Positions 1-49,084 of a stretch of 64,000 nt of DNA are shown here, in pieces. The notes under the pieces were generated by a model that did no database searches, was not told the origin of the DNA, and saw only the letters and a list, made by a program, of their open reading frames with translations. Made by a program: the position numbers and the translations under genes. Each line of letters opens with the position of its first letter. The first letter of the stretch is position 1. This DNA is from an uncultured bacterium (GTDB lineage Bacteria > Oederibacteriota > JAAXVQ01 > JAUVAV01), in contig CAZVUO010000001.1 in assembly GCA_964630235.1 (NCBI GenBank), positions 254,588 to 318,587 on the forward strand, read 5' to 3'.

Positions 1-3000
1 GATGTTCGTGGTCGCCAGGGCGTCGTCCATGTCCACCGTGTTCTTGGCACCCGTGGCGTCCACCTTGGCTTTGACGCCCCGGAGTTCTCCGCCCTTGAAA
101 TAGAAGCCGAACGCATCGTAATTCATATCGCCCTGCCACTGGCCGCCGCCCTTGTCCGTGAAGGTTTCGTGGGCTTTGGTCCAGTAGCCCTTGTTCTGGG
201 CCGTGCCGGTGTAGGTGTGCAGCACGCCCATGCTGTCGGTCCAGGTCTTGACGTTCCACCATTTATCCATGAGCAGCTTACCGTCGCGGGCTGAAGTGCC
301 TTCGATCTTGTCCACCCTGGCTCCGGCGTAGGTATAAGTAAAGGAACCGACACCGCCTGAACTGGTCAGCATCTTCTGCGTGGACTGGTTCCAGGTGGTG
401 ATGCCCTTGTCATCCTCGAAGGTCACGTACTCATTGACGCCGCCGAAAACATAATTGACGCTCTCGCCGTCTTCGCGCGTGCCAGTGCCCGTGGTCACGT
501 ACTGGCCGTCATTCTGGAAAGTGATCGTCTGGTTCATGGTGTCGGTGTTGTTCAGGACCCGCTGGGTCAAAACACCGGTGTCCGTATAGGTTTCGGTGCC
601 CGAGCCGTTGTGCAGGCCCATATAATCCGTGTAGGTGATATTGGCGGAGGTGTGGAAGCGTCCTTCCGGGCTGTCGGTATAGTTCCAGCTTATGGATGAA
701 CCGTCGTTATTCCGGCGGTTGCGGGTGAAGATGGCCGAATTTTCATAGCCCTCATCCATGGTCCAGGATTCCGTGCCCTGATTGTCCGTCACCGTGGCCG
801 CGATCGGACCGCGGGAGTTGAGGGTGTAGGAGAAAGTTGCGGTGGTGATGTACGTGGCCTGGGTGTAGGTGACCCGGGATACGGTCGGCAGATACATGTA
901 CTTGTCCGGATCCGGAGACGGGACAATGCCGGACATCTGCACGCTCATGGTATGCCGGTCGCCGCTGAACTCCTGCGTCCCGGCCGTGGGGTTGCCGTCC
1001 GCGTCGCGTCCGGTGTACTCGGTCACATGGATGACCTCGCCGGTCGGATATTTGTAGTCTTCGGTCCAGTTCTTGTATTCCACGCCGTGGACGTCGTAGT
1101 GGATGACTTTGTTTTCGGAATTCTGGACATTGGTCCGGGTTTCCGTCTGTTTGAAGCCTGTCCAGTCGTTATTGACAAAAGTACTGGTATAGATTTCCGT
1201 CTTTTTCTTCTTCCCGTCCTGCTTGTCACGCTGGGTGCGGGAGGCGGTCTTGCGCCCATGCATGTCATAGGCGGTGTTGTCTTCGCGGTACCCTCCCTCC
1301 CCTGTGCTGACCGTGCTCGTGGTCATGCCCGTGGCGGTATTGAATCCATAGGTGGTGTGCGTGACATTGCCGTCTTTGTCCGTGTCGTCGCTCTCCTTCA
1401 CCACGCCGTAAGTGGCGTCGTATTCATTCTTCGTGCTCCCGCGCCCGTTGCACTTGACCATGTTCGATGAGGTGTTCATGCCCGTCGAGGAATCCACGTT
1501 GTACGTGGATTCTGTATGCTGCATGCCATTGGCGCCGTAGATGCTGTCGGTCACGGAATTGGTGTTGAATCCGTCCGCATCGTAGTTCGTCATGGTCGTG
1601 GAATGGCCGGGGCTCAGGGAACGCGTCTGCGCCGCATTGCCGGTCCAGTGCACGGCTCCTGTGCGGTAGATCTCGGAATAGCGCGCGCCTGCCGCGGATC
1701 CATAGAAATTCTCGTTCTGCTTATGCAATCCGGCGGCCGGCAGGCCGTTTTCGTCCGAATACGTCCAAGTGCGGGACAGGCCGCTGGTGGTGTACTTGGA
1801 ACGGCGGATGCCCGTGTTCTGGTTCCAATCCTTGGTCCAGGTATAGCTGGTGCGGCCGGCAGTGGGGCCGATGGTGCCGTTGCTGACCGAATACATCTCC
1901 ACGCCCATCTGGTTATAATCCGAGGTGCTGTCGCCCAGGCCCGTGGTGGTGTACGTCTGCTTCTTCGATCCCGTGAAGTCGTAAATCGTGGAGACCGTGG
2001 TGGTGGAGGTGCGGGCGCGGGAAGCCCCGTAGGTCGTGTCGGTCGTCATGCTGCGGGCAATGCCGTTGATGTCGTGATTGGTGGTGGTGGTGGACAACAG
2101 CTGGCCGCCCAAACGCGAGTAGGACAGGGCCACGGACCGCTGGGTGAATCCGGTCGCGCTGTTGTAGGTCATGGTCGAGTTCGTGCGGGAAGCCAGTCCG
2201 TAAGAGGAAATATTCTCGCTGCGGATGGCCAGACCGTGCCCGTCGTAATTGGTCATGGTCGTGCCGTTGCTGTTGACGGAGGTGGATTGGATCAGTTTGC
2301 CGGTCGTCTGGTTCACCACGTAGGTAATGTTGTTGTTGACCGAATACCCCAGTGTCCAGGCCGCGTTCATGACCGTTATCGCATCGGTCTGCGTGCCAGT
2401 GTCCGAGGTGTAGTTGGTCCAGGTCTCGGACAGCGTGCCGCCTCCGCCGTAGGACCGGCTGTACGTTTCCATGTTGAGGCCGGTGTTGGTATTGGCGTCA
2501 ACATTTGTTTCCACGTTGCGATTGCCTTCGCCGGTGGCGTATTTATTATAGGTCAGCATGTGCTTGGCCACGCCGTACTTGGCGTCGAAGGCATCGGTGG
2601 TGGTGGTGGACAGGCCGTTGTCAGCCACCGTCCGGATATTCAAGCCCGTATCGTGGCTGGCGGTGATGGTCGTGTTGGTGGTCTGCGCCAGGGTGGGCAG
2701 GAAGTCCGTCACGCTGATGGAGCTGGTCGCCGTTCCATAACTGCCCTCGAAGAAGGTCGTGGTGGTGCGGTGCGATGTAACCGCGATGGTTTTTTCGTTC
2801 AGGCCGGTCTGGCGGTTGGCGGTGATGGTCGTGGTGATATCCCGCTCGCCCAGCACGCCCCACTGATTGTGCGCGACTGAGCGTTCGGCCACGCCGTAGG
2901 TGTCTCTGCTGTAATAGGTGTCGGTGGTCCCATACTGGTTGGTGGCGAAGGTGTGCTCGTTCAAACCGCTGTCGCGGTTGGCGGTAATGGTGGTGTTGGT

Positions 3001-6000
3001 ATCCATGGTGTAACCCAGCCCGAAATTGTTCACACTGTGCGAACGTTCCGCCACGCCATACCCGTCGCCCGAATACCAGGTTTCGGTCAGGCCATAGGTG
3101 TTCCTGCCCGAGGTAAACGTATTCAGACCGCTCCAATTATCGGCCGTGATCGTGGTGTTGGTGTCCCGCGTATACCCCAGGCCGTAGTTGTTGAGGGAGT
3201 GCGAACGCTGGGCCGTGCCATAGGTGTCCTGCTTGAACCAGGTTTCGGTGGTGCCATAGGCGTTGACTGAACTGGTGAAAGTGTTCAAGCCGCTCCACAG
3301 GTCCACCGTGATGGTGGTGTTGGTGTCGCGGGTCGCGCCCAGGCCGTAATTGTTCACGGCATGCGACCGCTGCGCCACGCCGTACGAGTCCCCGGTATAC
3401 CAGGTCTCGGACGTTCCATACCGGTTGACGGCGCTGGTGTAGGTGTTCAGGCCGCTCCACCGGTCCGCCGTGATCGTGGTGTTGGTGTCGCGGGTCGCGC
3501 CCAGGCCGTAATTGTTCACGGCATGCGACCGCTCCGCCACGCCGTAGCTGTCCCGCGAATACCAGGTTTCGTTGGTTCCGTAAGCATTCCGCGCGAACGT
3601 GTACTCATTGAGGCCGTTCCACCGGTTCGCCTGGATGGTGGGTGTGTCCGTGTCACGCGTCGCGCCCAAGCCGAAATTATTCACCGCGTGCGACCGCGTC
3701 GCCACGCCGTACGTGTCCTGCGCGTACCAGGTCTCGGTCCGGCCGTACGCACTGACTGCATGGGTATAGGTATTCAGGCCGTTCCACCGGTCCGCCGTAA
3801 TGGTCGTGTTGGAGTCCCGTCCGGCGCCCACGCCAAAATTGTTCACGGAGTGGGAGCGTTCCGCTACGCCGTACGTGTCCTGGGAGTACCAGGTTTCGGT
3901 GGTGCCATAGGCATTGGTCCCGGTCGTGTAAACGTTCAGGCCGCTCCAGGTGTCGGCGGTGATGGTGCTGTTGGTGTCCCGCGTGGCGCCCAGCCCGAAA
4001 TTGTTCATGCTGTGGGACCGTTGGGCCGTGCCATAGGTGTCCTGTGAATACCAGGTCTCCGTGGTGCTGTAGGCATTGACCGAACTGGTGAAGGTGTTCA
4101 AGCCGCTCCAGCGGTCCACGGTGACGGTGGTGTTGGAATCGCGCGTGGCGCCCAGACCAAAGTTGTTCACACTGTGCGAGCGTTCGGCCACGCCGTAGGA
4201 GTCCGATGCATACCACGTTTCGGTCCGGCCGTAGGCGTTGGTCGCGTTGGTGTAGGTGTTCAGACCGTTCCAGCGGTCCGCCGTAATCGTCGTGTTCGTG
4301 TCGCGGCTGGCGCCCAGCCCGTAGTTATTCACGCTGTGCGACCGTTCCGCCACGGCATACGTATCCTGGCTGTACCACGTTTCCGTCGTGCCATAGGCGT
4401 TGACGCCTACGGTAAACGTGTTCAGGCCGTTCCAGCGGTCCGCGGTGATGGTGGACGTGGTGTCGCGGGTCGCGCCCAGCCCGTAATGGTTGATGCTGTG
4501 CGACCGCTCCGCCACGGCATACGTATCCTGGCTGTACCACGTTTCCGTCGTGCCATACGCATTGCTGGCGATGGTGTAGTCATTGAGGCCGTCCCACCGG
4601 TCCGCGGTGACAGTCGTGTTCGTGTCGCGCGTCGCGCCCAGGCCAAAGTTGCTCAGACTGTGCGACCGTTCCGCCACGCCGTACGTGTCCTGCGAATACC
4701 AGGTCTCGGTCGTGCTATAGGCGTTGACGGCATTGGTGTAGGTGTTCAGGCCGTTCCAGCGGTCCGCCGTGATGGTCGTATTGGTGTCGCGCGTCGCGCC
4801 CAGCCCGAAGTTGTTCAGGCTGTGCGACCGTTCCGCCACGCCGTAGCTGTCCTGCGAATACCAGGTCTCGGTCCGGCCGTAGGCATTGGTCGCGTTGGTG
4901 TAGGTGTTCAGGCCGTTCCAGCGGTCCGCCGTGATCGTCGTATTGGTGTCGCGCGTCGCGCCCAGCCCGAAGTTGTTCAGGCTGTGCGACCGTTCCGCCA
5001 CGCCGTAGCTGTCCTGCGAATACCAGGTCTCGGTCCGGCCGTAGGCATTGGTCGCGTTGGTGTAGGTGTTCAGGCCGTTCCAGCGGTCCGCCGTGATCGT
5101 CGTATTGGTGTCGCGCGTCGCGCCCAGCCCGAAGTTGTTCAGGCTGTGCGACCGTTCCGCCACGCCGTAGCTGTCCTGCGAATACCAGGTCTCGGTCCGG
5201 CCGTAGGCATTGGTCGCGTTGGTGTAGGTGTTCAGGCCGTTCCAGCGGTCCGCCGTGATGGTCGTATTGGTGTCACGCGTCGCGCCCAGCCCGAAGTTGT
5301 TCAGACTGTGCGACCGTTCCGCCACGCCGTAGCTGTCCTGCGAATACCAGGTCTCGGTCACGCCATACGCATTCACGGCATTGGTGTAGGTATTCAGCCC
5401 GTTCCAATTGTCGGCCGTAATGGCCGTGGTGGTGTCGCGGCCGGCGCCGACGCCAAAGTTATTGACGGAATGCGACCGTTCAGCCGTGCCAAAGCTATCC
5501 TGCTTGTACCAGGTCTCGGTCCGTCCGTAGGCGTTGGTGGCCACGGTATAATCGTTCAGTCCGTTCCAGCGGTCCGCCGTGATCGTCGTATTGGTGTCGC
5601 GCGTCGCGCCCAGCCCGAAGTTGTTCAGGCTGTGCGACCGTTCCGCCACGCCGTAGCTGTCCTGGGTGTACCAGGTTTCCGTCGTGCCGTAGGCATTGGT
5701 GGCGAAGGTGTACGTGTTGAGCCCGCTCCAGCGATCCGCTTGGACCGTGGTGTTGGTGTCGCGCGTCGCGCCCAGCCCAAAGTTGTTCAGGCTGTGCGAC
5801 CGTTCCGCCACGCCGTAGCTGTCCTGTGTATACCAGGTTTCCGTCGTGCCATAGGCATTGGTGGCGAAGGTGTAGTCGTTCAAGCCGTTCCAGCGGTCCG
5901 CCGTGATGGTCGTGTTCGTGTCGCGCGTCGCGCCCAGCCCAAAGTTGTTCAGGCTGTGCGACCGCTCGGGAACGCCGTAGGTGTCGCGGGCATACCAGGT

Positions 6001-9000
6001 TTCGGTCATGCCATAGGCGTTGGTGGCCACGGAATATGTATTGAGGCCGTTCCAGGTGTCGGCGGTGACTTGGGTCGTGGTGTCGCGCGTCGCGCCCAGA
6101 CCATAATTATTGACCGTATGGGTGCGTTCCGTGACGCCATATGAATCTTGCGTAAACCAGGTCTCGGTCATGCCGTAGGCGTTGGTGCCGATGGAGTAGT
6201 CGTTCAACCCGTTCCAGCGATCCGCGGTGATGACCGTGTTCGTGTCCCGCGTGGCCCCGATGCCGAAATTGTTCAGGCTGTGGGACCGCTCCGCCACGCC
6301 ATACGTATCGTCCGTGTACCAGGTCTCGGTCATGCCGTACGCGTTCACGGCGTGGGTGTATTCATTCAGGCCGTCCCACCGGTCCGCCTGGATGGTGGTA
6401 TTCGTGTCACGGGATGCGCCGATGCCAAAATTGTTGAGGCTGTGCGACCGCTCCGCCACGCCGTACGTGTCCTCCGAATACCAGGTTTCCGTGATGCCGT
6501 ATGCATTGCTGGCAAAGGTATACTCATTCAGGCCGTCCCACCGGTCCGCCTGGATGGTGGTCGTGGTGTCGCGGGTCGCGCCCAGACCAAAGTTGTTCAA
6601 ACTGTGCGACTGCTCCGCCACGCCGTACGTGTCCTGCGAATACCAGGTCTCCGTCGTACCGTAGGCATTGGTGGCAAACGTGTACTCGTTTAAACCGTCC
6701 CACCGGTCCGCGGTGATGACCGTGTTCGTGTCCCGCGTGGCTCCGATGCCGAAATTGTTCACCGCATGCGACCGCTCCGCCACGCCGTACGTGTCCTGTG
6801 AATACCAGGTCTCGGTCATGCCGTAGACATTGGTCGCGATGGTGTAATCGTTCAGACCGTCCCACCGGTCCGCGGTAATGACCGTGTTGGTGTCCCGCGT
6901 GGCCCCGATGCCGTAGTTGTTCACCGCATGCGACCGCTCCGCCACGCCGTACGTGTCCTGCGAATACCAGGTCTCGGTCACACCGTAGGCGTTTTGAGAG
7001 ATCGTATAATCATTCAGGCCGTCCCACCGGTCCGCGGTAATGACCGTGTTGGTGTCCCGCGTCGCGCCCAATCCGTAGTTATTCATCGCGTGCGACCGTT
7101 CCGCCACGCCGTAGGTGTCGTCGGAGTACCAGGTTTCGGTCGTGCCGTAGGCATTGGTGCCGAAGGTGTATTCGTTCAGCCCGTCCCACCGGTCCGCCTG
7201 AATGGTCGTCAGGTTGTCGCGGGTCGCGCCCAGGCCAAAGTTGTTCAGGCTGTGCGACCGCTCCGCCACGCCGTACGTGTCCTGCGAATACCAGGTCTCC
7301 GTCGTACCGTAGGCATTGGTGGCAAACGTGTACTCGTTTAAACCGTCCCACCGGTCCGCCTGAATGGTGGTCATGGTATCCCGCGTCGCGCCCAAGCCGA
7401 AGTTATTCACCGCGTGGGACCGCTCCGCCACGCCATACGTGTCTTCCGAGAACCACGTCTCGGTCATCCCGTAGGCGTTGGTTGCCAGGGTGTACTCATT
7501 TAAACCATCCCACCGGTCTGCCTGAATGGTCGTAGCGGTATCCCGGGTCGCTCCAATGCCGAAATTGTTCACCGCGTGCGACCGCTCCGCCACGCCGTAG
7601 CTGTCCTGTGAATACCAGGTCTCGGTCACGCCATAGGCATTGGTCCCAATGGTGTAATCATTCAACCCATCCCAGCGGTCCGCCGTGATGATGGTGTTGG
7701 TGTCCCGCGTGGCGCCGATGCCGTAGTTGTTCACCGCATGCGACCGTTCCGCCACGCCGTAGGTGTCGTCCGAGTACCAGGTTTCCGTCATGCCGTACGC
7801 ATTCACGGCATGCGTGTAATTGTTCAACCCATCCCAGCGATCCGCGTCAATGGTCGTGTTCGTGTCCCGCGTCGCGCCCAACCCGAAATTGTTAAGGGAA
7901 TGCGAGCGCACCGCCACCCCGTAGGAATCTTCCGAGAACCAGGTTTCGGTGGTGCCATAGGCATTGGTGCCGAAGGTGTATTCGTTCAGGCCGTCCCACC
8001 GGTCCGCCTGAATCGTGGTTTGGTTGTCGCGGGTCGCACCCAAGCCGAAGTTGTTCACGGCGTGCGACCGTTCGGCCACGCCGTAGGTGTCTTCCGAGAA
8101 CCAGGTTTCGGTCATGCCATAGGCGTTTACGGCCATGGTATACTCGTTCAAACCGTCCCACCGGTCCGCCTGAATGTCCGTGGTGGTGTCCCGCGTCGCG
8201 CCAATACCGAAGTTGTTCATGGCGTGCGACCGTTCCGCCACGCCGTACGTATCCTGCGAGTACCAGGTCTCGGTCGTGCCATAGACGTTCACGGCATACG
8301 TGTAATCATTTAAGCCGTCCCACCGGTCGGCCGTAATGGTGGTATTCGTGTCCCGGGTGGCGCCGATGCCGAAGTTATTCAGGCTGTGAGAACGTTCGGC
8401 CACGCCGTACGTGTCGTCGGAATACCAGGTCTCGGTCGTGCCGTATGCATTGGTGGCCAGGGTATAGTCGTTCAAGCCGTCCCATTGTCCGGCCTGAATG
8501 ATGGTGTTGGTGTCCCGGGTGGCCCCCAGTCCATAGTTATTCACGCTATGGGAACGTTCGGCCACGCCGTAGCTGTCTTGTGTGAACCAGGTTTCAGTCA
8601 TGCCGTACGCATTGACGGCCCGGGTATATTCATTCAGGCCGTTCCAGGTATCCACCTGAATCGTCGTGTTGGTGTCGCGCGTCGCGCCCAGACCATAATT
8701 ATTCAAGCTGTGTGACCGTTCCGCCACGCCGTAGCTGTCCTGGGTATACCAAGTTTCCGTCATGCCATAGGCATTTTCGGCCAGCGTGTGCTCGGTCAAT
8801 CCATCCCACGTGTCGGTATCAATGTCCGTGGTCGTATCCCGCGTGGCGCCAATCCCGTAATTATTCAGGCTATGAGACCGGTCCGCGACGCCATAAGAGT
8901 CCTCCGTGTACCAGGTCTCCGTCATGCCGTAATCATTCGTGGCTTTGGTATAGATGTTCAGACCGTTCCAGCGGTTGGCATCAATCTGCGTCGTGGTATC

Positions 9001-16524: not shown

Positions 16525-16594
16525 GGCCAAAACCCCCTTTAACCAAAAAATATTGAGCAAGGCGCCATTAAGGCGTATTTTTCCGTTTGCCTAA

Positions 16595-16623
16595 AGTATA
16601 TCACACGAAAATAGGCATTACAA
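16595..16623 (-). promoter_or_regulatory. Sigma70-type promoter of giant gene 1 with an extended -10.
   Basis: Minus strand reads TTGTAA - 17 nt (TGCCTATTTTCGTGTGA) - TATACT. The TG of the extended -10 is present. The predicted TSS is about 64 nt upstream of the ATG at 16524. Confidence 0.55.
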
Positions 16624-16946
16624 ATAAGCGGCAGCGATAATAGCCTTATATTTAAAGCTTATTCTGGCCGCCTCCGCGCTAGTGGCCCGGTTGCAAAAAA
16701 CCGGAAGTTATAAATTCCCCTAAAAATGACCGTTCCGCCCCTTTTCCGGGCTGCCTAGGGCTGTTTTTTTTTGTTCTAAAAATCAAGGTTTTCAGCTCCT
16801 CTAGTTTGCAGGAAGAATTCGTTTTTTTACCCTGTGATTTTTGTGAGGAACTGTAAAAAATCCAGGACAGGCGGCGCTGGCCCACCCTCTTCCGGACGAG
16901 CATGCCTAACGCCGGGAGGATGTAAAACCCTGCAAGGGGCATGACC

Positions 16947-16957
16947 TGTGATATACT
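16947..16957 (+). promoter_or_regulatory. Extended -10 element (TGTGATATACT) upstream of lnt copy 1.
   Basis: The same GTGATATACT word as in both giant-gene promoters, here 28 nt upstream of the ATG at 16985. The -35 is weak (CTGCAA). Confidence 0.4.
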
Positions 16958-16984
16958 GAATCATCCTCGCAAAGAGATACGCGC

Positions 16985-18646: not shown

Positions 18647-18650
18647 GAAA

Positions 18651-18678
18651 CCCGGCTTCCCGTTTCCGGGAAACCGGG
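18651..18678. terminator. GC-rich hairpin between the convergent lnt copy 1 and giant gene 2. It is a canonical intrinsic terminator when read on the minus strand.
   Basis: CCCGGCTTCCCG-TTTC-CGGGAAACCGGG forms an 11-bp stem with one mismatch. On the minus strand the hairpin is followed by TTTCTTATTTT. Confidence 0.6.
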
Positions 18679-18701
18679 CTCCTGTGTTCACTCCGTCCGT
18701 T

Positions 18702-33700: not shown

Positions 33701-36700
33701 AGGCCTGGGTTTTGCCATCGTCCAGCAACCCCTGGAGCGTATCCGTGGTGCCGGACTCGACGACCGTATAATTCCCTTCTTTTTCCTGGATCTGCCGCGA
33801 ATCCTGGCCTGTCTGGTCCTGGCGGTTCAATCTGACCAATTCCGATGCCCGCAACCCCAGCGCATCCAGCTTTTCCGCCCTGCCGGTGGCGCCGAACGAA
33901 AACTTGCCGTCCTTGTCGCGGGTCACAAAAGCCTGGGTGGTTCCGTCGTCCAATTTTCCCTGGAGGGTATACGACCCGTCGCTTTCGATCACGGTATAAT
34001 TGCCTTTGGCGTCCTGGATCTGGCGCGAATCCGTTCCGGCCTGGTCCGCGCGGTTGTGGTCGAGCAGCTCACTGGCTTTCAGTTTAAGTTCGTTAAGCTG
34101 GGCTTCAGTCCCCGTCGCACCGAAGGAACCCTTTCCGTTCTCGTCAAGGCGCACGAACGCCTGCGCGCCGTTGGCGGTTTTGCCTTGCAGGGTATAAGAG
34201 CCGTCCGACATGACGACCGTATACTTCCCGCGTTCCGCCAAAATCTCGCGGGCCGGATCGCCCGCGACGTTCTCCTTGCGCAACTGGTCAATTTTCATGC
34301 CCAGTTCCCGAAGCTGGGCCTCGGTGCCCGTCGCCCCGTAGGTGTAGATGCCTTGCTGATCCACGCTGGCGAACGCCTGCGCGCCGTTGGCGGTTTTGCC
34401 GATCAAGGTCAAGCCCTCGGGTTTCACGCCTACGGTATAAAGCCCGAAACGATCCGCGAGGATTAACCGGGCCTGGTTGGCATCCTGCTGGTTCCGGGCG
34501 TACGCGTCAGCCGCCCAATATCCGCGTGCCTGCAGCACTTCCTGGGTGGCCCGGATCTGCTGCAGGTTCCAGGTAGAATGATTCGTGGCTGGATCTGTAA
34601 CATAATTCTCAATTGTTTGGACTAAATGCTGCTTCTGCATCAGCAAATCGCTGGTCGTGACCGTCCTGGAGATTTCGCCCTCCACCCGCCGCATCACGAC
34701 ATTCCAGTGTACGGCTGACTGAATCCTGACGCCGATCCCGGCAGGTTTATCATAAGCCGCGATCTTGAGGTTCAGCTCCTGAACCACATCGAAATCCATG
34801 TTTTCCATCAGCCCGGTGCTCTTTTCTTTGTCCTGCTCCGGCGTGGACCGGTCGTCCGTGTCGCTGGTCAGGAGCACCCGTCCGTTCATGCTGAACCGTT
34901 CTTCCTTGCCGGTCTGCTTGTCGGTCAGGCTGAATCCCTGCCCGGGTAAAAGCTTGAACACGACGTTCGGGAACTTCCCTTCCTGCAGGGCGCGCAATGA
35001 CTCGGGCTTCAGGTTGCCCTGATGGTCGTACAGCAGTGCCGCCCCGCCTGTGTCCTTGAAGATCACCTTGGTGCCGGTCAGCTTTCCATCCTGATAAAGC
35101 GACACGCTGACGCGTTCGCCGGTTTCGCTGTACTGGGTGAGGGAGTAGTTCTGAGCCTTTTCATCCAGGAAGGTGACAATGCGGTCATCCGACAGGTCCA
35201 CCCGCCGCAAGACACTGTCCTGGTACTGTGCAAAATAGCCCAGGGTTTCACCGCCGGCCTGGAACTGGTTCCTGCCGATCACGCTGTAGTTGCCGCTTTG
35301 GAAGTCCGCCTCTCTTCCCACGAACACCGTGCCATCCGGGGCAATATAGGCGGATTTTCCGGCCAGGAGGTCCGCGATGACCTGCGCGGTTTGGGGATTC
35401 ATGCCCAGATTGGTCAGGGTCTCCAACTTCACCGCAGGCAGAAGTTCGGCCGCGATCATGACGCCATCCTGCTTGATAAAGGCCTGTCCCTGCTGGAACA
35501 CCAGGGTAACCACCGGCAGAGCGAACTGCGCCGCTGGATCCCCGGGACGGCTGAAGAGGGTTTCCTGATCCAGCCCGCGCGTGCTGAGATCCAGGTCCAC
35601 TTTGTACAGCACGCCATTTTCCTGGTGGAAGGCCACGGCCTTGTTGTCCGCCGTGATCTGGTCCGACTGAACCATAACGCTCCGCAAGCCCTTCTGGCCG
35701 CCGATCTCCATCTGCACGGTCACGCGCTGATGGAAGCGGGAAAAATTATCCTCTCGCGTGAAAGTGGACAGCAGGCCTTGTTTGTCAGAAACCGCGAGCT
35801 GGTCCAGGGTGATCGCGCCGTCCGGCCGGTTTTCGTCCGCCGGTTTAAAGGAAAGCGTGACCGTCACGTCGCCTTCCTTCTGCTGCACGGTCACCCGGCC
35901 ATCCAGACCGCGGGACACCGTGCCCACACCCTCCAGGTACAGCGTCTGACCGGACCGCAGTTTGCCCAGGCGGTCATTGATTTTGGCGGTCAGGTTTTCG
36001 CTCAGTTGGTTGACCGCCGCGGCGTTGATCATCCCCTGTTCCACGGCATTCAGCCGCACCAAGAGGGCGAGATTAGCGGTTGAAACCGCGGCCACGCTGG
36101 CATAACTCAAGGCAATGGCAAAGGCTTTCGTTGTCAGCGCTTTGTCGGTCGCGCCGCTGGTTTGCAGGATCTCGAGCACCCGCAAAGCAGTTTCCATTTT
36201 CACGGGCCCGTCGGGAAGTTTTCCCAACGCATCCATGCTCAAGGCCAGGGTTTGCAGGCCGCCATCCGTGGCGCCAAGCGCCAGTTGATAATCAGCGGCC
36301 CGCACCATGACCGGCGCGTCCTGGCTGAGCCGCGCGTGTGCAACCGCACTGTCGAGGCTGGCTTTGGATTGATCGAGATTAAAGACGTTGAGTTCGGCCG
36401 TGGCCAATGTCTTATAGGCCAGTTCGATCACGGTGGCGGATTCGCCCTTGGCGGTGACTACGTTGACATAGGCTTGCGCCTGCTGCATCGCGGTCAGGCC
36501 GAGGTTCAGGGCGAGCTCTTTCAGTTTGGCCTCGTAGGCAGGCGTGCCGGCAACCAGGCCCATCCCGGTGAGATAGTCCTGGTAGCTGCGGTTTTGGGCC
36601 AGGACCGAGGGATCGGCATTTTCAGCCATTATCCGGATCTTGAGTTGCTCTCCGCTCAACTGCGCGGATTCCTTCACGTCAAACAGGAAGCCGATGACCC

Positions 36701-39700
36701 GCCCGGCGGCGTCCTTGGTGTAGCGGCTTTCCTTGGTCAGGGTCCACTGCCCATCCGAACCCTTGGTATACACACCGCCCAGTTCGCCCAAGCGGTTGAA
36801 AACAAAAGCCTCATTGCTACCGGCCGGCCGCAGGGCAATGATGCTGTTCCAGAAATTGCCGACCTGCACGTACTCCATAGCACCCGTCACCTGACCGTCC
36901 TTGGACAAGGTGACCTGATAGGTCTTCCCGTCGCTGCCCTTGACATCCATCGTGGTGACCGGGCGGCCCAGGTCGTCTGTTTGAATCGGAGCCTGCAACG
37001 TCACGGTTTTGCCGTCAACCTCAAAGGAATAGGTTGCGGCCGCGGTTTTGCCCGGTTCAAAGGCGCCGAGCGTCATGATTTTCGTCAGCAACGTCGAGAC
37101 TTTCGGAATTTCCGCGCCGGGTTCATACGCCCCCAGCGAGAATAGTTCCGCCAGAATGGTCTGGAAAAGATTGTGCTTGATCGGCACCTCCACCTTGCCG
37201 CCGGAGGCGTCCTTGGTCTGGTCGGGAGTCAGTCCGCGCGGCTGGCCTTGGTCAGCTGCTTCCTCAACCGCGCGCTGGGTGGGATCCACGTTTTGGCTGG
37301 GGCTGATCAGGCTGGTGCCCTCCCCAACTTGTTTATCGCTGTAGTCTTCGGGAGGGACGTCCAGTTTCCCGGTGGGATCGGTCACCGTGCTCTTGCCGGC
37401 CTGCTGGTTGGACGCACTTGGCCGGAATGACCCCAAATCCAATTGGTTTTGATTTCCCACGGCCCGCTCCAACGCTTCGGGCGTTCCGGTAATTTCCACG
37501 CCCTCCGGGCCCTGCAACTTCACCATGCCGTCGGGCATGGTCTGCTCTTTAAACTGCTTCAGGTCGAGCTGGCCGGCGGCGTCGGTCAGTTTTTCCAAAG
37601 CTTGCGGGCTTCCACGGATGGATAAGCCTTCGCCGTTCGTCTGGGTAACTGGAAGCTGGTCGCCCTCGACTGCCTGCAAGCGGCTCACGTCCAAGTTGTT
37701 GCCGCCGGCCATTGCCTCGCTCAGACCCGCAGGCGTCGCCGTGATCTGCACGCCCGGCGCTTCATAGGTCACTGTGCCGTCCGCATTCTGCCGGGCGGAC
37801 ATTTTACCCAGATCCACCTGACCGTTGGCGTCCATGACCTGGTTCAGGGCGGCCATGGTACCCTTGACTTCGATCCCGCCGTTCTCCCCTTTATATAATG
37901 TAGCGTCTTGGCCACCGAACGGGTCCCCGCCCTGGCCGGTGCCGTCGTCCGCTGCGCCCGCCGCCACATCGTCCTTATTTCTATCCTGCCCGGTTTGGCT
38001 GCCCGCCTCTCCCTCGGTCACCGTCTTCCCGTCCTCATTCAGTTCCAGACGGTCGCCCTCCTTTAAGGCCTCCGCGCCGCTCCGTGTTTTTCCGTCCAGT
38101 CCACCGGCCTTGCTCAGTCCCTCGAACCCCTTGCTGATATCAAGGTCCGGGATGCTGAAATCGCCGGCCATCAGTGCATCGCCCATTTGGTCGCCAGCGT
38201 AAATGTTGGCCGTGACCCCATCCCCAGCTGGATTATCCCGGAAGGTCGTGGTGATATGCTCGTTCCCGATCTGTTCGGTCACGGCCAGCATCTGGGTTTG
38301 TCCGGTTTGCGGATCAACCACTTGGCTCACAGCCATAACCTGGTTGCCGTCCAGGTTTTGGAAGGTTTCCACTTTTAACTCATAATCCCCACCCGCCGGC
38401 AGACTGCCTTCACGGGTCAGATTCTCAACGGTTTTGCCCAGGAGTGACTCCGCGGGGATCATATCCGCTTTTACCGTTGTGCCCCTAACCGCCGATCCTT
38501 CAGCCGGCGTATACTTGTCCGGCAACGCGCCGGTTTGTTTCATTTCCTCGATCTGCTGGCGGTGTTCGGCCAGGTTCATGCCGATCTCCTCGGACAACCC
38601 TTGGAAATCCGACATGGCGCCTTCCCCCGCGCCGCCGCCCTGGCCTTCGCCGCCCTCTCCGCCTTCGCCTTCGCCGCCGCCTTGCCCGCCGCTTCCAGCC
38701 GAAGCGTCCTTGCTTTCGATTTTAATCTCGTCATCCCTGCGTTCGATCTGCGTGCCCTCCTTGCGCAAGCCTTCCTGCGAAATGGTGGTGCCCGGCAGCC
38801 CCAGGTCCTTGACCGCGGCGTCCTGGGGTTGGTCCGGCACCTCCATTTCGTTGTCCCGGTTCTGGTTGTCCAGGCTGGGGCTGCCCAGATCTTCGCGCAC
38901 GGTGTCGGACTGGACTAGCGGTTCGTTTTGCACGTCCGGCATCTGGTCCGGAAGCATCAGGTTGTCGGGCTGCTTCTCCGGCTGGGGTATGGGCTGTTTG
39001 TTGTCCGGCCTGACCTGCTGGTCAGTCCGCGCCGGCGACTCGTTTTTCTGCTCTTCGGTTCTGCTGGGAATGCCGCTGGCCGTCCTTCTTTGTTCCTGGT
39101 TGGATTGCTGTTGATTCTGCTGGTTGGGATTCTGCACCGAGGACTGGCCCGCATCCAACTGTTGATCCAATTCAGAGGTTGGCGATTCAGTCTTGGTCAT
39201 TTCGGTCTCTTCATTGATCTGAGCGCTCTGATCCGTGGTCATGGCGAGAAGCGCTTCGCCGCGAGCCGGAGACTCGGTTTTGGATTGGCCGGTAGCCGGA
39301 CCCAGCTTTGGGGCCTCGATCAGTCCTTCAAGCCCGCGGACATTCCCTGCTGCCGCGCCCAGCACATCCTTGGCCTGGGCCAAATTGTTCACGGTCACGA
39401 GCGACTTGCCGCCGGGAACGGTGACGCCACCGGTGGGAGAGATCGCGGTCGTGAATTCCGATGGCAGCCAGGTCCACTGCCCGCTCTCCAGGGAGAATCC
39501 CGGAACCATCTTTTCCGCGAATGTGCCCCACGTGTTGGCCACGTGGTATTTTTGCATGTCGCCCCATTCCTTGCCGCTCTTGGTCTCGGCCGGAGCGTAC
39601 TGCATGACTACCGTGGAAACGGTCTTGGCCACCACCGGCCGCACGAAGGTCATCATAAAGAGTCCCACATTGTCCATGGGGGTCATCAGGTCGCGGATGG

Positions 39701-42700
39701 AATTGTCGTTGAGCACCTGGTTCACGGCCCCGAGCCAACCAACCAGACCGCTGGCCATGGCCCCCCAAATGGCCCCGGCCCGGCGGTCCTGCGCAGCCTT
39801 GTACCCGTTTTCTTCCTTGCTGTTGATGAACAGGGACTGCACCAGAAAAGCGAGACCGGCACGCATGGCGGTCGAGGTCATAAACTGCACCAAGCCGAAC
39901 CCCTTGGCCACCCCAAAGGACTCCTTCACGGAATCCCAGAGACCCCCGAAAAACCCTTTTTTATTATCTCCCATGATCATTTCCGTGAGGCCAGCGGCCA
40001 GCCAGTCCGCCACAATGCCGATCAGCGGCATGTAGAACAAGAGATCCTCGGGCAGGATTTCGTTCAAGACCTGTATGATGCTTTCCCGCAGAACCGCCTT
40101 GAGAATCGCTTTGAGCACGTTGGTGGTCAGGCTTTTAATTAGATCTGATATGGTGGTAATCACCAACTTGACGCCTTGTTTGATCAATTCCTTGGCCACG
40201 TCCTTGATGGCGCTCGCCCAGCCGCCCAGCGCGGCCTTGACAATAGAAAATAAGACGTCGAGCGCCGGTGGCAGGGGGAGGAAGGTTTGGATGAGTTCGA
40301 TCAGGATGATGATAGCCAGCAAAATTGGCGCGGCCGAACCGAAGCTCACGATGGTGAGCACGATGGAGATGATGAACATGAAGATCTTGCCGAAGGTGGA
40401 ATTGGCCAGTTCGCCGTACTCCTGCATGGTGTCCCAGCTGAAATTCAGCAGCGCGTCCACGATCTTGTAAATATAATAGGCGGGGTTGGCGAAAATCATG
40501 AACATTTCCATGAAGCTTTCCAGGCTGGGGTTCTCGAAGAAATCCAGGATGGCCTGCGGTCCCTGGAAAATGAACATGACGATGGCCAGGCTCAGGTAGT
40601 CCGTGCACTCCGGGTCCGGCGGCTCCTGTTCCGGCGGTTCGGGGTGGCCGTACATGCGCGCGATGTCCCAGGCCGAGCCGGAAGCGACGTAGTCCGGCGT
40701 CCGGTCTCCGCCTTCCTGGCTGATCTCCACTTCCGGCATGGCAGGCACGCGCGACTCCTCGGCCGGCAGTTCCAGCAAGGCCGCGAGCGAGCCGAGGCGG
40801 GTGCCGCGGACTTGATCCATTTGGGCTTTGAGCCCCTCTCTTTCTAACTGGACGGCGGGAACAGCCTGGTTCGCGCTGATCTGTTCGGGCATGACCAGCG
40901 GCACTGAGCCGATATCCGCCGGCAAAGCCACGTCCGCCAGCCCGGCCGGCTGCAGCCCGTTGTCCGGCAGGCTCAGGGAATCCGGCAGTTCCGCGTCCGG
41001 TCCCACAATCATCGCCAGGCCGCGTTTGAACGCTTCGCTCAATTCGCCGGCGAGATTCGTTTCGCGCGCCGGGGACGCATCCGTACCTGGCAGCACATTC
41101 ACCAGGAGGGCTTCCTGGCGCAGCTGCGTCACATCCGGCAGCGTCCGCACGCCGGCCGCTTCCACCCCGCCGGTCTCGTCCGCTTCGTTGGCGTCCGGTG
41201 CGGCGGTCTCGGTCTCCTTCGGTTCTGCATCCTCCTCCACCATCCCCGCTTCCGGGCCGACCAGGGCGATTTCAGCATCCTCCGTCAGCACGGTGTCCGT
41301 GTTTTCCACCGGCCGTTCGCCTTCCGGCAGAAGCTCCGTCTCAGGCCCCTCGGTCTGGGGCTGTTCAATCAAGTCCGTCAAGATCACCGAAGGGGTTTCG
41401 ATCTCCTCCGGCGTTTCCACTCCCGCGTTATGGAGCACGTCCAGGAGCGCCGACACGTCCACGTCCTCTTCTTCCACCGCTCCGCTTTCGCCCGCATCCT
41501 CCCGGTCCTCACCCAGCAGCGCGAAGAAGTCCTCCAGGCTGGGGCCTTCGGCCTCCGCCCCTTGGTCGGTCTCTTTCTCCTGGTCACCCAGCCCCAGCAG
41601 CCGCAGTACTTGCTCTGGCAGCTCGACCGTGCTCTCGTCCCCCTCGTTGGCTGTTTCCTCAACCGCCTGCTCGCCGCCTTCCTCAGGCTCCTCTGTGACC
41701 ACTGTCTCCCCGCCCTCAGGCTCTTCTTCCTCGGGTTGAATCCCTTCCGGCGGTTCTATGGCCTCTTCCCCGGCCACCTGCGTCTCGGTCGCGTCCGTCC
41801 CGGGCCGGGCGTCCTCCGGCAACGCCGTCTCCCCGGGTTCCGGTTGGGCCGCCGCTTCTCTCGGCAACTCTGTCTCGCCGGTCTTCGCGGTGGTTTCCTC
41901 CTTCAACTGCTCATTCATCCCCAGCAGGGCCAGAAATTGCTTGGTCAGGTCAGCCAGCGTGGTCTCGGCGTTGCTTTTGCGGTCCGCCTGCTCCGCGTCC
42001 TGGACCTGTGTCTCCCCGCCCTGCTCCGCGGGCTGTTCCACCGGCTGCGTCTCGGGCAGCCTGCTTTCCGCCGGCTGTTCCGGCGGGGTCACGCCTTCGG
42101 CGCCCGGTTCCACTTCAGTCTCCGCCGGCTGCGCGTCTGGCATGGTCTCCTGCGCCACCACTGTCGTTTCCGCGGTCTCGGGCTGCTGCGCGGGCGCGAT
42201 TTCCCTGGGCAGCATTTCCGCCGGGATCGGCAGGCGGGCCAAGTCCGCCGTTTCCGTCAAGCGGCCTTTGCCGCTCAAACCATCCAGACTCAAGCTCAGA
42301 CTCAACGGCCCCTGGCTGCTGGTGGCCACGTCGGCCAGCAGGCTGGGATCAGCGGCCGGCTGGTCGGCGGACTGTTCCTCGGGCTGGGTGCCGGCCGGTT
42401 GCCCGCCTTGCGGCAAGGCAACGTCCACCCACTGCAGGGCGGTTTCCACGCCCACGCCGGACATGGTTTTTTCGGCAATGGTTTGCAGCGAAACCGTGGA
42501 CAGCAGATCGCCGTATTCCGCCTTGAGCACATTCAGGCGGGTGGTCGCCACATCGGTTTTCAGGCTTTCAGGCGAAGCGACGGGCAGGAACGCATCCGGC
42601 TGATTTTGATCCAGGGGATTGGCGGGCCGCAGCAGATCGTTCTGCTGGTTGTAAATGTCCTGGCGGTTGTTGTCAAAACCGTAAGCCAGGATGGTGTCCA

Positions 42701-42839
42701 TGCCGGTCATCGTGAAGACGAAAAGCACGGCCAGCACCAGGGAAATGACTTTGCGGTGCTGTTCTCTTACCAGCCGCCAGGCTTTCCGGCTCAGGATGAC
42801 TGCTTGCGACCACGCTTGGATGGGGTTCATATGCCTCAC
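18702..42839 (-). CDS. Giant (8045-aa) multi-domain membrane protein with an embedded SecA-like ATPase.
   Basis: A single uninterrupted ORF of 24138 nt in the supplied track. The track start is GTG at 42839. ATG at 42830 (M4) lies behind AGAGGTGAGG and is the more likely start. Domain evidence is given in the findings. Confidence 0.9.
   Translation of the reverse strand: [8045 protein letters not shown]
22500..24230 (-). other. SecA-like motor domain (NBD1, PPXD-like insert, NBD2) inside giant gene 2 (aa ~6204-6780).
   Basis: [17 protein letters not shown] (Walker A) compares with SecA [30 protein letters not shown] compares with SecA [42 protein letters not shown]...[22 protein letters not shown] compares with SecA YIVKDGEVIIVDEHTGR...[39 protein letters not shown] compares with SecA NQLRGRSGRQGDPG. 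Confidence 0.75.
28690..34470 (-). repeat. 26 in-frame tandem ~74-aa (about 222-bp) units inside giant gene 2 (aa ~2791-4717).
   Basis: I counted 26 occurrences of the core x-[22 protein letters not shown][ST]-F-G-A-T-G-T-x-x-Q-L-[DN]-x-L-G-L in the translation. Spacing measured on one unit is 75 aa. Units are diverged, roughly half of positions being conserved. Confidence 0.9.
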
Positions 42840-42990
42840 CTCTGAACCAAGCAGCCCGTTTGGCCTGCTCGGTTATGATAAAAACTTTCCAACCGCAGTC
42901 AGCGGGCCGCGGCATTTCGCGCGCGCACAAATATATGAAATAATGCGATATTCGGGCGCGTGGTTATCCAGCATAATAAATTTCAGCTTA

Positions 42991-43019
42991 AGTATATCAC
43001 TGGTTTTTAGCCGAGTCAA
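42991..43019 (-). promoter_or_regulatory. Sigma70-type promoter of giant gene 2 with an extended -10.
   Basis: Minus strand reads TTGACT - 17 nt (CGGCTAAAAACCAGTGA) - TATACT. The predicted 5' UTR to the ATG at 42830 is about 150 nt. Confidence 0.6.
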
Positions 43020-43182
43020 AAAACGGACTTGGTTTTTATGCTTTTTTTACAAGGGTTTTCCGCGAGAGTCAGGAGGTTGTGCAAAAAACCGTTTCCTGCC
43101 GGACCCGGTTCGTTAAAATCCCTTTGAAAATAGTATTAATTCCTGCGGAAGGCGTTTTGCGGTGAATTTTTCCATGCGGCGA

Positions 43183-44802
43183 TTAATTTTTTACCAGCAG
43201 ATGCTTGGGCAGCAAGCAGGCCGCGAGCATCGAAGCAAACATCAGCAGCATCAAATAAGGCACCACATTTCCATGGCAGGTAAAAAACGTCTTGAAATCG
43301 GATGGATAGATCGTGGCAAATTTCACGCCCGGTTCAAAGTAAGGCAGCGCCTCGCTCAACCTGCCCCAAGGGTCAATGACCAGCGTTGGACCGGTCATGG
43401 ATGCCTTGGGCATGTACGCCCGATGCTCAATGGCCAGGAAAACCGCCATGGCCGTATGCTGGCTGCTCATGGCTGATCGGCCGGCCCAGCCGTCGTTGGA
43501 CACGGAGGCGAAAAAACGCGCTCCGTTCTTCGCGAGCATGAATCCCAGTTCCTCGAAATGGTCCTCATAGCAGATCAGCGGAGCGAACAGCCTGCCGTTC
43601 AGCGCCAGCGGCGTATAATCGGTCCCGGGCTCGAAGTCCACGGGAATGGGTTCGCGCACCACGGATTGCATGAAGCGTTTCATCCATTCCCAGGGAATAT
43701 ATTCGCCGCCCGGCACCAGCTTGATTTTGCGGTAACGCCCCAGGGTTTCTCCCTGGCCGCCGAGGAGGAACGCGCTGTTGTAGTGATGGTAGCGGGCGCC
43801 TTCGAGCAGATAGGTCGGCTGGTACTCATTGCTGGTCAGAAGGGTCGGTACGCCGCTGGTCCGGATCAGGAAACGCAGGCGTTCTTCCCAGGCGGACTCC
43901 GGCTCATATTCCAAAATGCCCGGAAAACAAGACTCGGCCCAGAGGATCAGGTCCGGATCGCCGGCCGCCGCCTGCTGGTGCAGCGGTTCCATGCGTTCGA
44001 AGGCCTTCCGCTTGTAGGTCTCGTCCCAGCGCTGATCCGTGTTGAGGTTTCCCTGCACGAGGGCCAGCCGCAGCGGCGAACCCGTCTGCCGGGCGAACGC
44101 CCGCGCCTCTGCGGCGCACCGGCCCAGCAGATAGAGCCATCCCGCGGCGAGCAGAAGAACCACTGCCAGCCGGACCGGCCGCCGCGTGGCCGCGCGCAGG
44201 TCGAAGCGCAGGGACGCGTTCCAGTCCCGGGACCAGGCCGCGGCCAGGACCGCGCCGGCTGTCATGATCCAATACGACACCCCGCCCACGCCCGCCACCG
44301 CGGCCACCTGCCGGACCACCGCGTTGGCATACTGCGTATGCCCCAGGCTCGCCCAAGGCCAGCCGCCGGTGATGAAATGGCCCCGGACATATTCCCAGGC
44401 TGCCCAGGCCAGGGGCAGCACCAGCACCGAAGGCCACCTCAGGCGGTCGCACACCACACGGGCCGTGAAGCTGAAGAGGCCGAAGTACACGCCTCCCAAA
44501 AAGGAATAGATCACCCAGCCGATGGCGTTGTCCACGTTGGTGTCCTTGTTGATCAGGCGGAGCCAGGAAAGGACCACGAGGAAATACACGAACCCGAACA
44601 TCCAGCCGAACCCGAAGCTGCGCGGCCAGTTCGCGGCGCGCCAAGCGAGCAGAAACGGCACGAGCGCCAGCCATGCCAGCCAGCCCGGCGCCTGCTCCAG
44701 GCGGGGCATCCAGCCGTTGGGAAAAGACAGAGCCAGCAGGCCGCCCGCGGCCGCGGACGCAGCCAGACCGGACCAAAAACTTCGGGGCACGGGAAGAACC
44801 AT
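43183..44802 (-). CDS. lnt: Apolipoprotein N-acyltransferase, copy 2 (paralog of 16985..18646).
   Basis: Start chosen at ATG 44802 (MVLPVPRSFWSGLAASAAAGGLLALSFPNGW...). Motifs are WEYVRGHFITGGWPWASLG, LILWAESCF, YRKIKLVPGGEYIP and APLICYED. The track ORF 43183..47034 extends 744 further codons that are antisense to the transketolase genes, and I treat that extension as spurious. Confidence 0.88.
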   Translation of the reverse strand: MVLPVPRSFWSGLAASAAAGGLLALSFPNGWMPRLEQAPGWLAWLALVPFLLAWRAANWPRSFGFGWMFGFVYFLVVLSWLRLINKDTNVDNAIGWVIYSFLGGVYFGLFSFTARVVCDRLRWPSVLVLPLAWAAWEYVRGHFITGGWPWASLGHTQYANAVVRQVAAVAGVGGVSYWIMTAGAVLAAAWSRDWNASLRFDLRAATRRPVRLAVVLLLAAGWLYLLGRCAAEARAFARQTGSPLRLALVQGNLNTDQRWDETYKRKAFERMEPLHQQAAAGDPDLILWAESCFPGILEYEPESAWEERLRFLIRTSGVPTLLTSNEYQPTYLLEGARYHHYNSAFLLGGQGETLGRYRKIKLVPGGEYIPWEWMKRFMQSVVREPIPVDFEPGTDYTPLALNGRLFAPLICYEDHFEELGFMLAKNGARFFASVSNDGWAGRSAMSSQHTAMAVFLAIEHRAYMPKASMTGPTLVIDPWGRLSEALPYFEPGVKFATIYPSDFKTFFTCHGNVVPYLMLLMFASMLAACLLPKHLLVKN

Positions 44803-44872
44803 GGGAGAATTATAGCACAAGGGTCCGTGTTTGGTGGAGGCCGACCCGGACTTAAGTTCCTCCCAGGGGCCC

Positions 44873-44995
44873 CATGGAGCCCCCCGGGCAAAGCCCGGGG
44901 TACCAACTGCACCTCTCGTTACCTCCTCTGGGCGACATCCCCGGAGCAACCATTCCGCATTCACCCCCAAGGCAAGGGGTGCCCTGCGGAGAGGA
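44873..44995. repeat. Conserved intergenic element, copy A (paired with 50014..50119).
   Basis: 83 of 94 aligned nt are identical to copy B. It contains the hairpin CCCCGGGC-AAA-GCCCGGGG. It lies between the divergent lnt copy 2 and the transketolase N-subunit gene. Confidence 0.7.
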
Positions 44996-45210
44996 TGGCC
45001 GGGGTTCCCTCCCGCAGCAAAAATCATATCCCGCAATTCCATCCCTGGAGCGGTCTTTGGGGTCGCTGAAGCCCGGGGAATTGTGCGGTGGGATCGTTTT
45101 TGGACTCCCTCCGCTTTTCGTTGGGGCGTCCCCGGCCAGGGGCTTTTAACGCTTGACAAAGCCCGGAGGGGTCTAGTACGATTCTCCGCATATTTTCCGG
45201 AGGTTTTTCC

Positions 45211-49076: not shown

Positions 49077-49084
49077 TGAGCCTA

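Follow-up and report, generated by a model that had tools for sequence, protein, structure and literature searches.

A giant membrane protein with a diverged SecA-like module and its pairing with a second giant in an uncultured bacterium

The DNA analysed here (the window, 64,000 nucleotides from an uncultured bacterium of the GTDB lineage Oederibacteriota; contig CAZVUO010000001.1, positions 254,588 to 318,587 of the forward strand) opens with an island of two giant genes, A and B, which are both encoded on the minus strand. Giant B contains a module that is SecA-like in its modelled fold and motif architecture and lies outside the known SecA sequence families, and a large gene on the same strand follows B-family genes in eight of nine inspected loci. 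We read the island as a two-gene cassette of a motor giant plus a partner giant for a cell-envelope or surface structure, in which the motor would export the partner, and we give this reading about even chances. The genes themselves are real. In a stop-to-stop scan, A and B took up 16,524 + 24,129 = 40,653 nt of the first 44,802 bases, in agreement with the initial annotation, a note made from the sequence alone, which had assigned 40.6 kb of this part to two proteins. The main features are as follows:

1..16524, minus strand: giant A, open frame from 16590 to base 1, ATG at 16524, 5,508 codons, running off the window
18702..42830, minus strand: giant B, frame 42872-18705, ATG at 42830 (alternative GTG at 42839), stop codon at 18702-18704, 8,042 amino acids (aa)
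22131..24290, minus strand: SecA-like ATPase module of B, aa 6181-6900, identified by superfamily 2 (SF2) motifs, an AlphaFold2 model, Foldseek and hhalign

The length of A is a lower bound (at least 5,508 aa), with the C-terminus lying beyond base 1 of the window.

The SecA-like module and the B family

To the initial annotation B carried a SecA-like motor, and the motif architecture, a fold search and a profile alignment all pointed the same way. The Q motif, AGGGKT, DEVH, an insertion of 197 aa, SGT, a stretch resembling motif V, RSGRPGG and long helices follow one another in this order. The motif V-like stretch reads AAVGKNFQA in B and TGxDxQG in the family consensus, and the core residues of the SF2 motifs are invariant in an alignment of 18 family sequences. 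The preprotein-binding domain of SecA is inserted between motifs II and III, and the spacing of 197 aa between these motifs in the module is typical of SecA and unlike ordinary helicases. The AlphaFold2 model computed from the 18-sequence alignment (predicted local distance difference test, pLDDT, 81; predicted TM-score, pTM, 0.72) shows two alpha/beta domains. In this model, long strands run at residues 185-194 and 348-357, the insertion lies at the position of the preprotein cross-linking domain (PPXD), and the second nucleotide-binding domain (NBD2) is followed by helices at 598-642 and then by a helix of 46 residues at 653-698, while the wing domain and the C-terminal tail of SecA were not identified in it.

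When the model was compared with the PDB by Foldseek, the top 25 matches were all SecA or SecA2 (E 3.7e-16 to 1.8e-7; about 690-1,000 aligned columns), and the first helicase appeared at rank 26 with an E-value of about 1e-6. The hhalign comparison of the family profile with Escherichia coli SecA (NBD1) gave a probability of 80% and an E-value of 1.4e-5 and placed GGGKT opposite GEGKT and TPLIISG opposite the TxAIIGG strand; the E. coli sequence used for it agrees with 2fsf at 1,889 bits. The known families of SecA gave another picture at the sequence level. SecA_DEAD (PF07517), SecA_PP_bind and SecA_SW had no match in the module at E-values up to 10, phmmer of the module against the PDB returned nothing significant, and with the family profile the PDB sequences yielded no more than weak matches to SF2 proteins and SecA (E 0.015-2), with a non-significant Hel308 at the top. 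These results support a module that is SecA-like in fold and architecture, outside the SecA sequence families. As modelled, it would be a very diverged SecA-type ATPase with two RecA-like domains, an insertion at the PPXD position and a helical scaffold-like tail.

Relatives of this module are rare. Only 53 of them were retrieved when 1.84 billion cluster representatives were searched exhaustively with HMMER; the full-length ones are mostly 2,000-7,200 aa long, and the short ones resemble contig fragments. A word-indexed homology search with the module and with the family alignment A1 found nothing. A genome profile scan with an alignment of five sequences detected B orthologs in a metagenome-assembled genome (MAG) of Candidatus Firestonebacteria (L007) and in two further MAGs (L008 and L009), and the same alignment had no match in metagenome contigs. 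By cluster look-up, the family member P0011 comes from an Endomicrobia MAG. The B orthologs include P0001/P0067, L007 and L008. Colinearity of B with the ortholog at L008 starts at aa 2301 and extends to the C-terminus, the SecA-like region and its flanks being conserved best, and the SecA-like module is the only widely conserved core of B. The initial annotation had pointed to giant genes of Omnitrophota, which is correct according to the preprint 10.1101/2023.11.21.568195, but an affiliation of that type was not borne out, as the named relatives of A and B are from Firestonebacteria, FCPU426 and Endomicrobia.

Outside the module, Pfam and NCBIfam searches with both halves of B gave no match, and the remaining parts were described by hydropathy and repeat structure:

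42684..42740, minus strand: N-terminal transmembrane anchor of B, aa 31-49, by hydropathy, with a basic stretch before it
28671..34460, minus strand: repeat array of B, aa 2791-4720, about 26 units of about 74 aa each with about 50% identity
27651..28322, minus strand: central hydrophobic cluster of B, aa ~4837-5060, conserved in the L008 ortholog
19329..20687, minus strand: C-terminal hydrophobic cluster of B, aa ~7382-7834, conserved in orthologs

A further hydrophobic cluster lies near aa 826-948, and the hydropathy scan found ten or more hydrophobic segments in the whole protein. Six strong segments precede the motor, starting from the basic N-terminus, a count that depends on the threshold; this number is compatible with a cytoplasmic ATPase. 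Between the anchor and the cluster near aa 826, an acidic low-complexity stretch of about 780 aa (aa 50-825; 40356-42683, minus strand) is rich in Glu, Pro, Ala, Thr and Gln and is not conserved in orthologs. The idea that the giants are lipoproteins was rejected, since no lipobox Cys stands near either N-terminus; the Cys residues of B are at positions 742, 3806, 4985 and 6720.

Giant A and the large genes downstream of B-family genes

Giant A is dominated by tandem repeats behind a putative signal sequence:

16390..16524, minus strand: N-terminus of A, MITITGQERMHFGLWNKTAWLGTLALLGTLLLFVGVSMSSAAS, read as a signal peptide of the Sec type or an anchor; hydropathy peaks at aa 24-42, and SSAAS comes next
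9071..13026, minus strand: array 1 of A, 23 tandem units of 57 aa (171 nt), Tandem Repeats Finder (TRF) 84% matches, score 4589
3014..9096, minus strand: array 2 of A, 37.5 tandem units of 54 aa (162 nt), TRF 77% matches, score 4555

The two arrays, about 60 near-identical units of 54 or 57 aa with 77-84% DNA identity, make up most of A and are weakly homologous to its N-terminal YD region. In that region, aa 401-430 matched Pfam RHS_repeat (PF05593) with 36.4 bits (cut-off 22) and NCBIfam YD_repeat_2x (TIGR01643) with 22.8 bits (cut-off 15.8). The protein is rich in Thr, Gly, Asn, Ser and Tyr and has one Cys in 5,508 aa (aa 5025). The closest homologs (P0054-P0057) are 47-55% identical over the first 1,166 aa and are named YD or RHS repeat proteins in their sources, and one of them is from a MAG of candidate division FCPU426. 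The distant homologs P0058-P0066 carry RHS_repeat and PF25023, three of them also PF20148, and some are labelled “RHS repeat-associated core domain-containing protein” by their sources. An RHS core, the DPxGL motif and a toxin were searched with Pfam, NCBIfam and a motif scan, and none was found in the 5,508 visible aa of A. An AlphaFold2 prediction of 12 units, made with a pseudo-alignment of shifted repeat windows, was all-beta with four strands per unit, at a pLDDT of 36 that makes it unusable.

The RHS/YD-like character given to A in the initial annotation thus stood as far as the YD repeats above the cut-offs and the RHS- or YD-named homologs go, while the core and toxin of an RHS protein are not visible. 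On sequence grounds A is YD-like, and the label of a canonical RHS toxin is not warranted by the visible evidence. The other structural claims for the two giants agreed with our results, namely N-terminal anchors (the hydrophobic segments at aa 24-42 of A and aa 31-49 of B) and huge repeat arrays (23 + 37.5 units in A and about 26 in B).

We inspected the 3' flank of nine B-family genes, including that of the window and counting L013-L015 as one locus. It turned out that a large gene on the same strand lies downstream in eight of the nine loci, of which three are YD-like and five belong to another family, here called g2. What follows the B-family gene is, locus by locus:

Window: lnt1 on the opposite strand, then giant A
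L013-L015 (B ortholog P0067, 49% identical): YD-like giant 197 bp downstream
L016 (P0005; guanine-cytosine content, GC, 0.46): YD-like giant L016_d of 3,196 aa
L008: large g2-family protein, 15903-22373
L017: g2-family protein, 7933-9825
L018: g2-family protein, 8132-11515
L019: short open reading frames (ORFs), then a giant of 11,468 aa opening with a g2 module; g2 at 23731-25503 and from 26797 onward
L021: short ORF, then a giant of 10,281 aa opening with a g2 module, from 13651 onward
L020: no large partner

The loci with partners span genomes with GC from 0.46 to 0.61. L016_d matches A by tblastn with an E-value of 3e-76 over 2,000 aa, and no RHS core, DPxGL motif or toxin had a match in it (3,167 of 3,196 aa examined). 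The A-like partners at L013 and L016 have Sec-type signal peptides resembling that of A. We also considered L013 as a paralog from the same genome as the window, which is unlikely given a flank GC of 0.589 versus 0.655 and a tetranucleotide correlation of r = 0.90; L013-L015 probably belong to a different genome.

The g2 module is about 500 aa long, with an N-terminal anchor and the invariant residues DLHxN ... GGFH. It has no Pfam match, and the only PDB sequences picked up by its profile were azurins, matched by chance. Three proteins (P0016, P0027 and P0028) have the g2 module joined N-terminally to a part with the SecA-like module, a fusion of the Rosetta-stone type which suggests a functional link of the motor with its downstream partner. 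The B anchor (aa ~24-49; 42684-42760), RKVISLVLAVLFVFTM, is closely like the anchor of g2 partners, SKIISVLIAVMFVFPY (L017 from 7933 onward, L008 from 15999 onward), and judged by this resemblance it could be a common sorting or anchoring motif. The A-family partners carry ordinary signal peptides rather than an anchor of the B/g2 type. Besides, the distant B-family gene P0006 (L019, 1-9336) adjoins Tad/type II secretion-like genes (T2SSE ATPase, secretin, RcpC and TadE), a neighbourhood which recalls the reported closeness of Omnitrophota giant genes to homologs of the type II secretion system.

Layout of the island and its surroundings

Short-read assemblies of at least six samples agree with 15.9 kb of the window (12772-28646), which cover the N-terminal part of A, lnt1 and the C-terminal part of B, at 99.96-100%. 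Matching so closely across independent assemblies, the sequence that flanks the arrays is no product of mis-assembly. The short-read contigs stop at the repeat arrays, and the copy numbers given for the arrays are provisional. The features around the giants are as follows:

16985..18646, plus strand: lnt1, 553 aa, on the opposite strand between A and B
43183..44802, minus strand: lnt2, 539 aa, on the same strand as B and upstream of it
16595..16623, minus strand: promoter-like site upstream of A, TTGTAA-17-TATACT with TG
42991..43019, minus strand: promoter-like site upstream of B, TTGACT-17-TATACT with TG
18646..18683, minus strand: terminator-like hairpin of 17 bp and a following T-run, where B and lnt1 converge on their stops
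45211-46998, plus strand: split transketolase (N-terminal and C-terminal subunits), real genes under an antisense frame

Each giant gene had been credited with its own promoter, and promoter-like extended -10 sites do lie upstream of A and B. The 11-mer GTGATATACTT, which includes the extended -10 element (TGnTATACT), is present exactly upstream of A (16594-16604, minus strand) and B (42990-43000, minus strand); a copy with one mismatch stands upstream of lnt1 (16948-16958, plus strand) and none upstream of lnt2. In total three matches were observed, versus 0.15 expected. Considering the hairpin, lnt1 on the opposite strand and a promoter-like site for each giant, A and B are not one operon.

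The lnt paralogs were also placed between and beside the giants in the initial annotation, and their identity is clear. Each of them contains LNT_N and CN_hydrolase (Pfam), they are 54% identical to one another, and they scored 268 bits (lnt1) and 280 bits (lnt2) against the TIGR00546 equivalog, the cut-off of which is 133; a look-up of lnt2 found no record. As a part of the arrangement they did not hold up elsewhere, since lnt is absent from every other locus examined, and they are probably incidental housekeeping neighbours. They are also unlikely to act on the giants, because neither giant has a lipobox Cys near the N-terminus.

Two frames in and next to the island were set aside. The ORF at 44803-47034 (minus strand, 744 codons), which continues the frame of lnt2, lies antisense to the transketolase genes and is noise. 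An ORF of 87 aa in the region between A and lnt1 (16679-16942, minus strand) was called by gene finders on short-read contigs; it is basic, of low complexity and overlaps the promoter region, and is probably spurious. The GC of the giant-gene island (1-44802) is 59-61% versus 65.5% in the flank (44803-64000), which could reflect acquisition from outside or the Thr/Asn-rich composition of the repeats. The remaining genes of the window are ordinary for a diderm, such as those for OmpA, Memo, a GAF protein, transaldolase and sugar-nucleotide metabolism. Among them are genes for a protein with a C-terminal sorting domain of the type IX secretion system (T9SS) type (53339-54361, minus strand), an OmpA-family protein (51494-53320, minus strand) and a FadL/UPF0164-like outer-membrane protein (54457-55395, minus strand). 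The organism is thus a diderm, and a T9SS-type route may be possible. We found no tRNA or Rfam match in the window, and its genes include no secY and none for T6SS (type VI secretion) or PAAR; SecY2, Asp1-3 and glycosyltransferase genes are likewise missing from it.

Proposed mechanism, rival readings and known systems

In the reading that we favour, the cassette of a motor giant and a partner giant is real, and we infer the deployment of A by the motor. B would be a giant embedded in the inner membrane, with clusters of membrane helices flanking the SecA-type core and with its very long, poorly conserved repeats presumably outside the cytoplasm. The tethered SecA-like motor would spend ATP in pushing a very long repetitive polypeptide across the inner membrane; its substrate may be the extracytoplasmic segments of B itself, and probably also the partner encoded downstream. 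Such a mechanism would parallel the service of accessory SecA2 systems to giant serine-rich adhesins, and it agrees with the export proposals published for Omnitrophota giants (10.1101/2023.11.21.568195). In the case of A, with a Sec signal, almost no Cys and a putative all-beta YD structure, about 60 units could build a long fibre or shell, and the exported product might serve in attachment or attack. The topology, the ATPase activity, the export substrate and the surface function are all put forward here as predictions. A functional coupling of motor and partner was already the hypothesis of the initial annotation, and we keep it as a hypothesis with mixed support from synteny. In its favour, a YD-like giant follows B orthologs in two other genomes (L013-L015 and L016), so that the two kinds of giants do occur next to each other outside the window and the pairing withstands the check proposed in the initial annotation; on the other side, the partner is more often of the g2 family and the closest orthologs of A are without B. 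The g2 fusions, the Sec-type signal peptides of A-family partners and the 11-mer common to the upstream regions of A and B also speak for the cassette.

Several points weigh against this reading. The motor is C-terminal to those segments of B which would need export, and crude hydropathy gives unstable counts of transmembrane segments for the B family, so that the topology set out here is tentative. In the fused-type giants P0016, P0027 and P0028, the scan showed no more than one hydrophobic segment on the N-terminal side of the motor, and with one segment an exported N-terminal part is hard to square with a cytoplasmic motor. In most loci the partner belongs to the g2 family rather than to that of A, and L020 has no large partner. 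Upstream of the closest A orthologs (P0054, P0056 and P0057; 47-55% identical) no B-like gene is present, but ispD/ispF, radA, mla and dnaB in two genomes and histidine-kinase genes in one. In the window itself, A is parted from B by the opposite-strand lnt1, the strong terminator-like hairpin and separate promoter-like sites. Family members also match DEAD (5 of 18), Helicase_C (3 of 18) and ResIII (2 of 18) weakly and SecA_DEAD not at all (0 of 18).

Some of these points would be expected if A and B were two independent giant surface proteins, the module serving B only, A using the housekeeping Sec system and the adjacency reflecting a shared surface or variable island. We regard this as a serious competitor, though a less probable one. 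A orthologs without B upstream, separate promoter-like sites for the two genes with a terminator-like hairpin and the opposite-strand lnt1 between them, and the normal look of the A signal peptide for Sec all fit it, and self-export is among the published proposals for such giants. It leaves unexplained why a large same-strand gene follows B-family genes in nearly all inspected loci, why three proteins combine g2 and the motor in one chain and why the order of B and then a YD giant recurs at very different genome GC. In the opposite direction, the B family could be the core of a hitherto unrecognised, self-contained export apparatus for giant envelope proteins, in which a SecA-derived motor, held permanently by its own membrane helices and possibly channel-forming through them, is encoded with or fused to an interchangeable client, that is, the YD-like giant here and the g2 family elsewhere; this extension seems to us rather unlikely.

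The other rivals concern one giant each or the assembly. A might be a polymorphic RHS toxin with its core and toxin beyond the window and another delivery route, B being unrelated. The YD repeats, the distant homologs with RHS_repeat and PF25023, some with RHS-core names, and the C-terminus outside the window speak for such a toxin, which is nevertheless improbable, as neither DPxGL nor an RHS core occurs in 5,508 aa, the nearly complete L016_d is also without a core or toxin match, about 60 near-identical units differ from the degenerate repeats of RHS shells, and T6SS and PAAR genes are not found in the window. It is very unlikely that, instead of a translocation motor, B carries in its SF2 module an ATPase of helicase-like, mechanical or signalling function within a giant envelope-associated scaffold. 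The weak helicase-family matches and the Hel308 at the top of the profile search suit that idea, but in the fold search every helicase trails SecA by about 10 orders of magnitude, conservation extends to the TxAIIGG strand and to the SecA-specific insertion that separates motif II from motif III, and the module is set among membrane helices in proteins with huge repeats of non-cytoplasmic appearance. That the giant frames arose from mis-assembled repeats is hardly credible: short-read contigs do break at the arrays, whose units are 77-84% identical in DNA, but frames of 16.5 and 24.1 kb remain open, assemblies of at least six samples match the 15.9 kb segment, and colinear orthologs exist in other genomes. 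The repeat copy number is the sole point of the assembly that is really open to doubt.

How bacterial proteins of 5,000 to more than 100,000 residues are synthesized, exported and displayed is an open question; SecA-like domains in giants have been noted, and their client has not. The locus and its relatives offer a compact and testable case for giant-protein export. If the motor exports the partner, there would be a dedicated route for giant surface proteins, following the machine-plus-cargo logic of other secretion systems, and the clustering of such genes would be explained. Besides, structure prediction on family alignments can annotate giants which are negative in Pfam.

The RHS/YD proteins, such as the T6SS Rhs effectors, TcB/TcC, teneurins and WapA, share with A the YD repeats, the beta-rich character and a composition rich in Tyr, Asp, Gly and Thr. 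They differ from it in that A has no visible core or toxin and about 60 near-identical units instead of degenerate repeats, and A (at least 5.5 kaa) is far longer than a single RHS cocoon. Canonical SecA and SecA2 have, like B, two RecA-like domains that bear SF2 motifs. Going by the model of B, an insertion of about 190 aa that separates motif II from motif III and would sit on a two-strand stem, and a long helix behind NBD2, are putative further common traits. The identity between B and SecA is only about 10-15%, the Pfam SecA families are unmatched in B, and the motor of B is residues ~6180-6900 of a membrane protein of 8,042 aa, whereas SecA is soluble and about 900 aa long.

In Gram-positive bacteria, the accessory Sec system (SecA2/SecY2/Asp) exports giant serine-rich repeat adhesins. 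As in this locus, a dedicated gene for a SecA-type motor lies there beside one for a very large, repetitive surface protein with a signal peptide. Unlike that system, the locus has no SecY2, Asp or glycosyltransferase gene, the motor is inside a giant membrane protein, OmpA and a T9SS-type sorting domain mark the organism as a diderm, and the putative substrate is YD-like and not serine-rich.

The closest counterparts of B are giant multi-transmembrane proteins with divergent SecA_DEAD domains, namely “Archaeovorin” and dockerin-type giants of Omnitrophota, as described by West-Roberts et al. (2023, bioRxiv 10.1101/2023.11.21.568195). The same authors give SecA-like domains as a hallmark of Omnitrophota giants and propose that these domains export the giant itself or accessory proteins. 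A cluster of giants with PF07517 also appears in bioRxiv 10.64898/2026.06.07.730766. The kind of protein to which B belongs is thus no novelty, as polytopic giants bearing divergent SecA_DEAD domains, mostly from Omnitrophota, are already described. Like B, the Omnitrophota giants are polytopic, with long repeats and, close to their C-terminal membrane helices, an embedded SecA-like ATPase that evolves fast. They are larger (more than 30 kaa versus 8 kaa for B), and their SecA_DEAD domains contrast with the module of B, which is invisible to Pfam SecA_DEAD and SecA_PP_bind. By Pfam and NCBIfam, B also lacks the glycosyl hydrolase or transferase, dockerin, TSP3, C39 peptidase or other enzymatic domains of those giants. 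The named relatives of B are from Firestonebacteria, FCPU426 and Endomicrobia versus Omnitrophota for the giants of West-Roberts et al., and the model of B has a helical scaffold-like tail, while the Omnitrophota domains are reported to have none. Term searches of 10.1101/2023.11.21.568195 turned up no recurrent downstream partner giant. What appears to be new is a Pfam-invisible SecA-type module that defines a small, mostly giant family with named members outside Omnitrophota, and the way in which the motor giant is systematically paired with, or fused to, a second large protein from one of two families, which in this island is a YD-repeat giant with about 60 near-identical units. A further case is that of Giant1-5 of Apilactobacillus kunkeei, five surface-protein giants in a Gram-positive bacterium (PMC12863079). 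The abstract of that study mentions no embedded ATPase, unlike B, and, going by the same abstract, the case resembles this island in that consecutive genes for giant extracellular proteins fill much of the locus.

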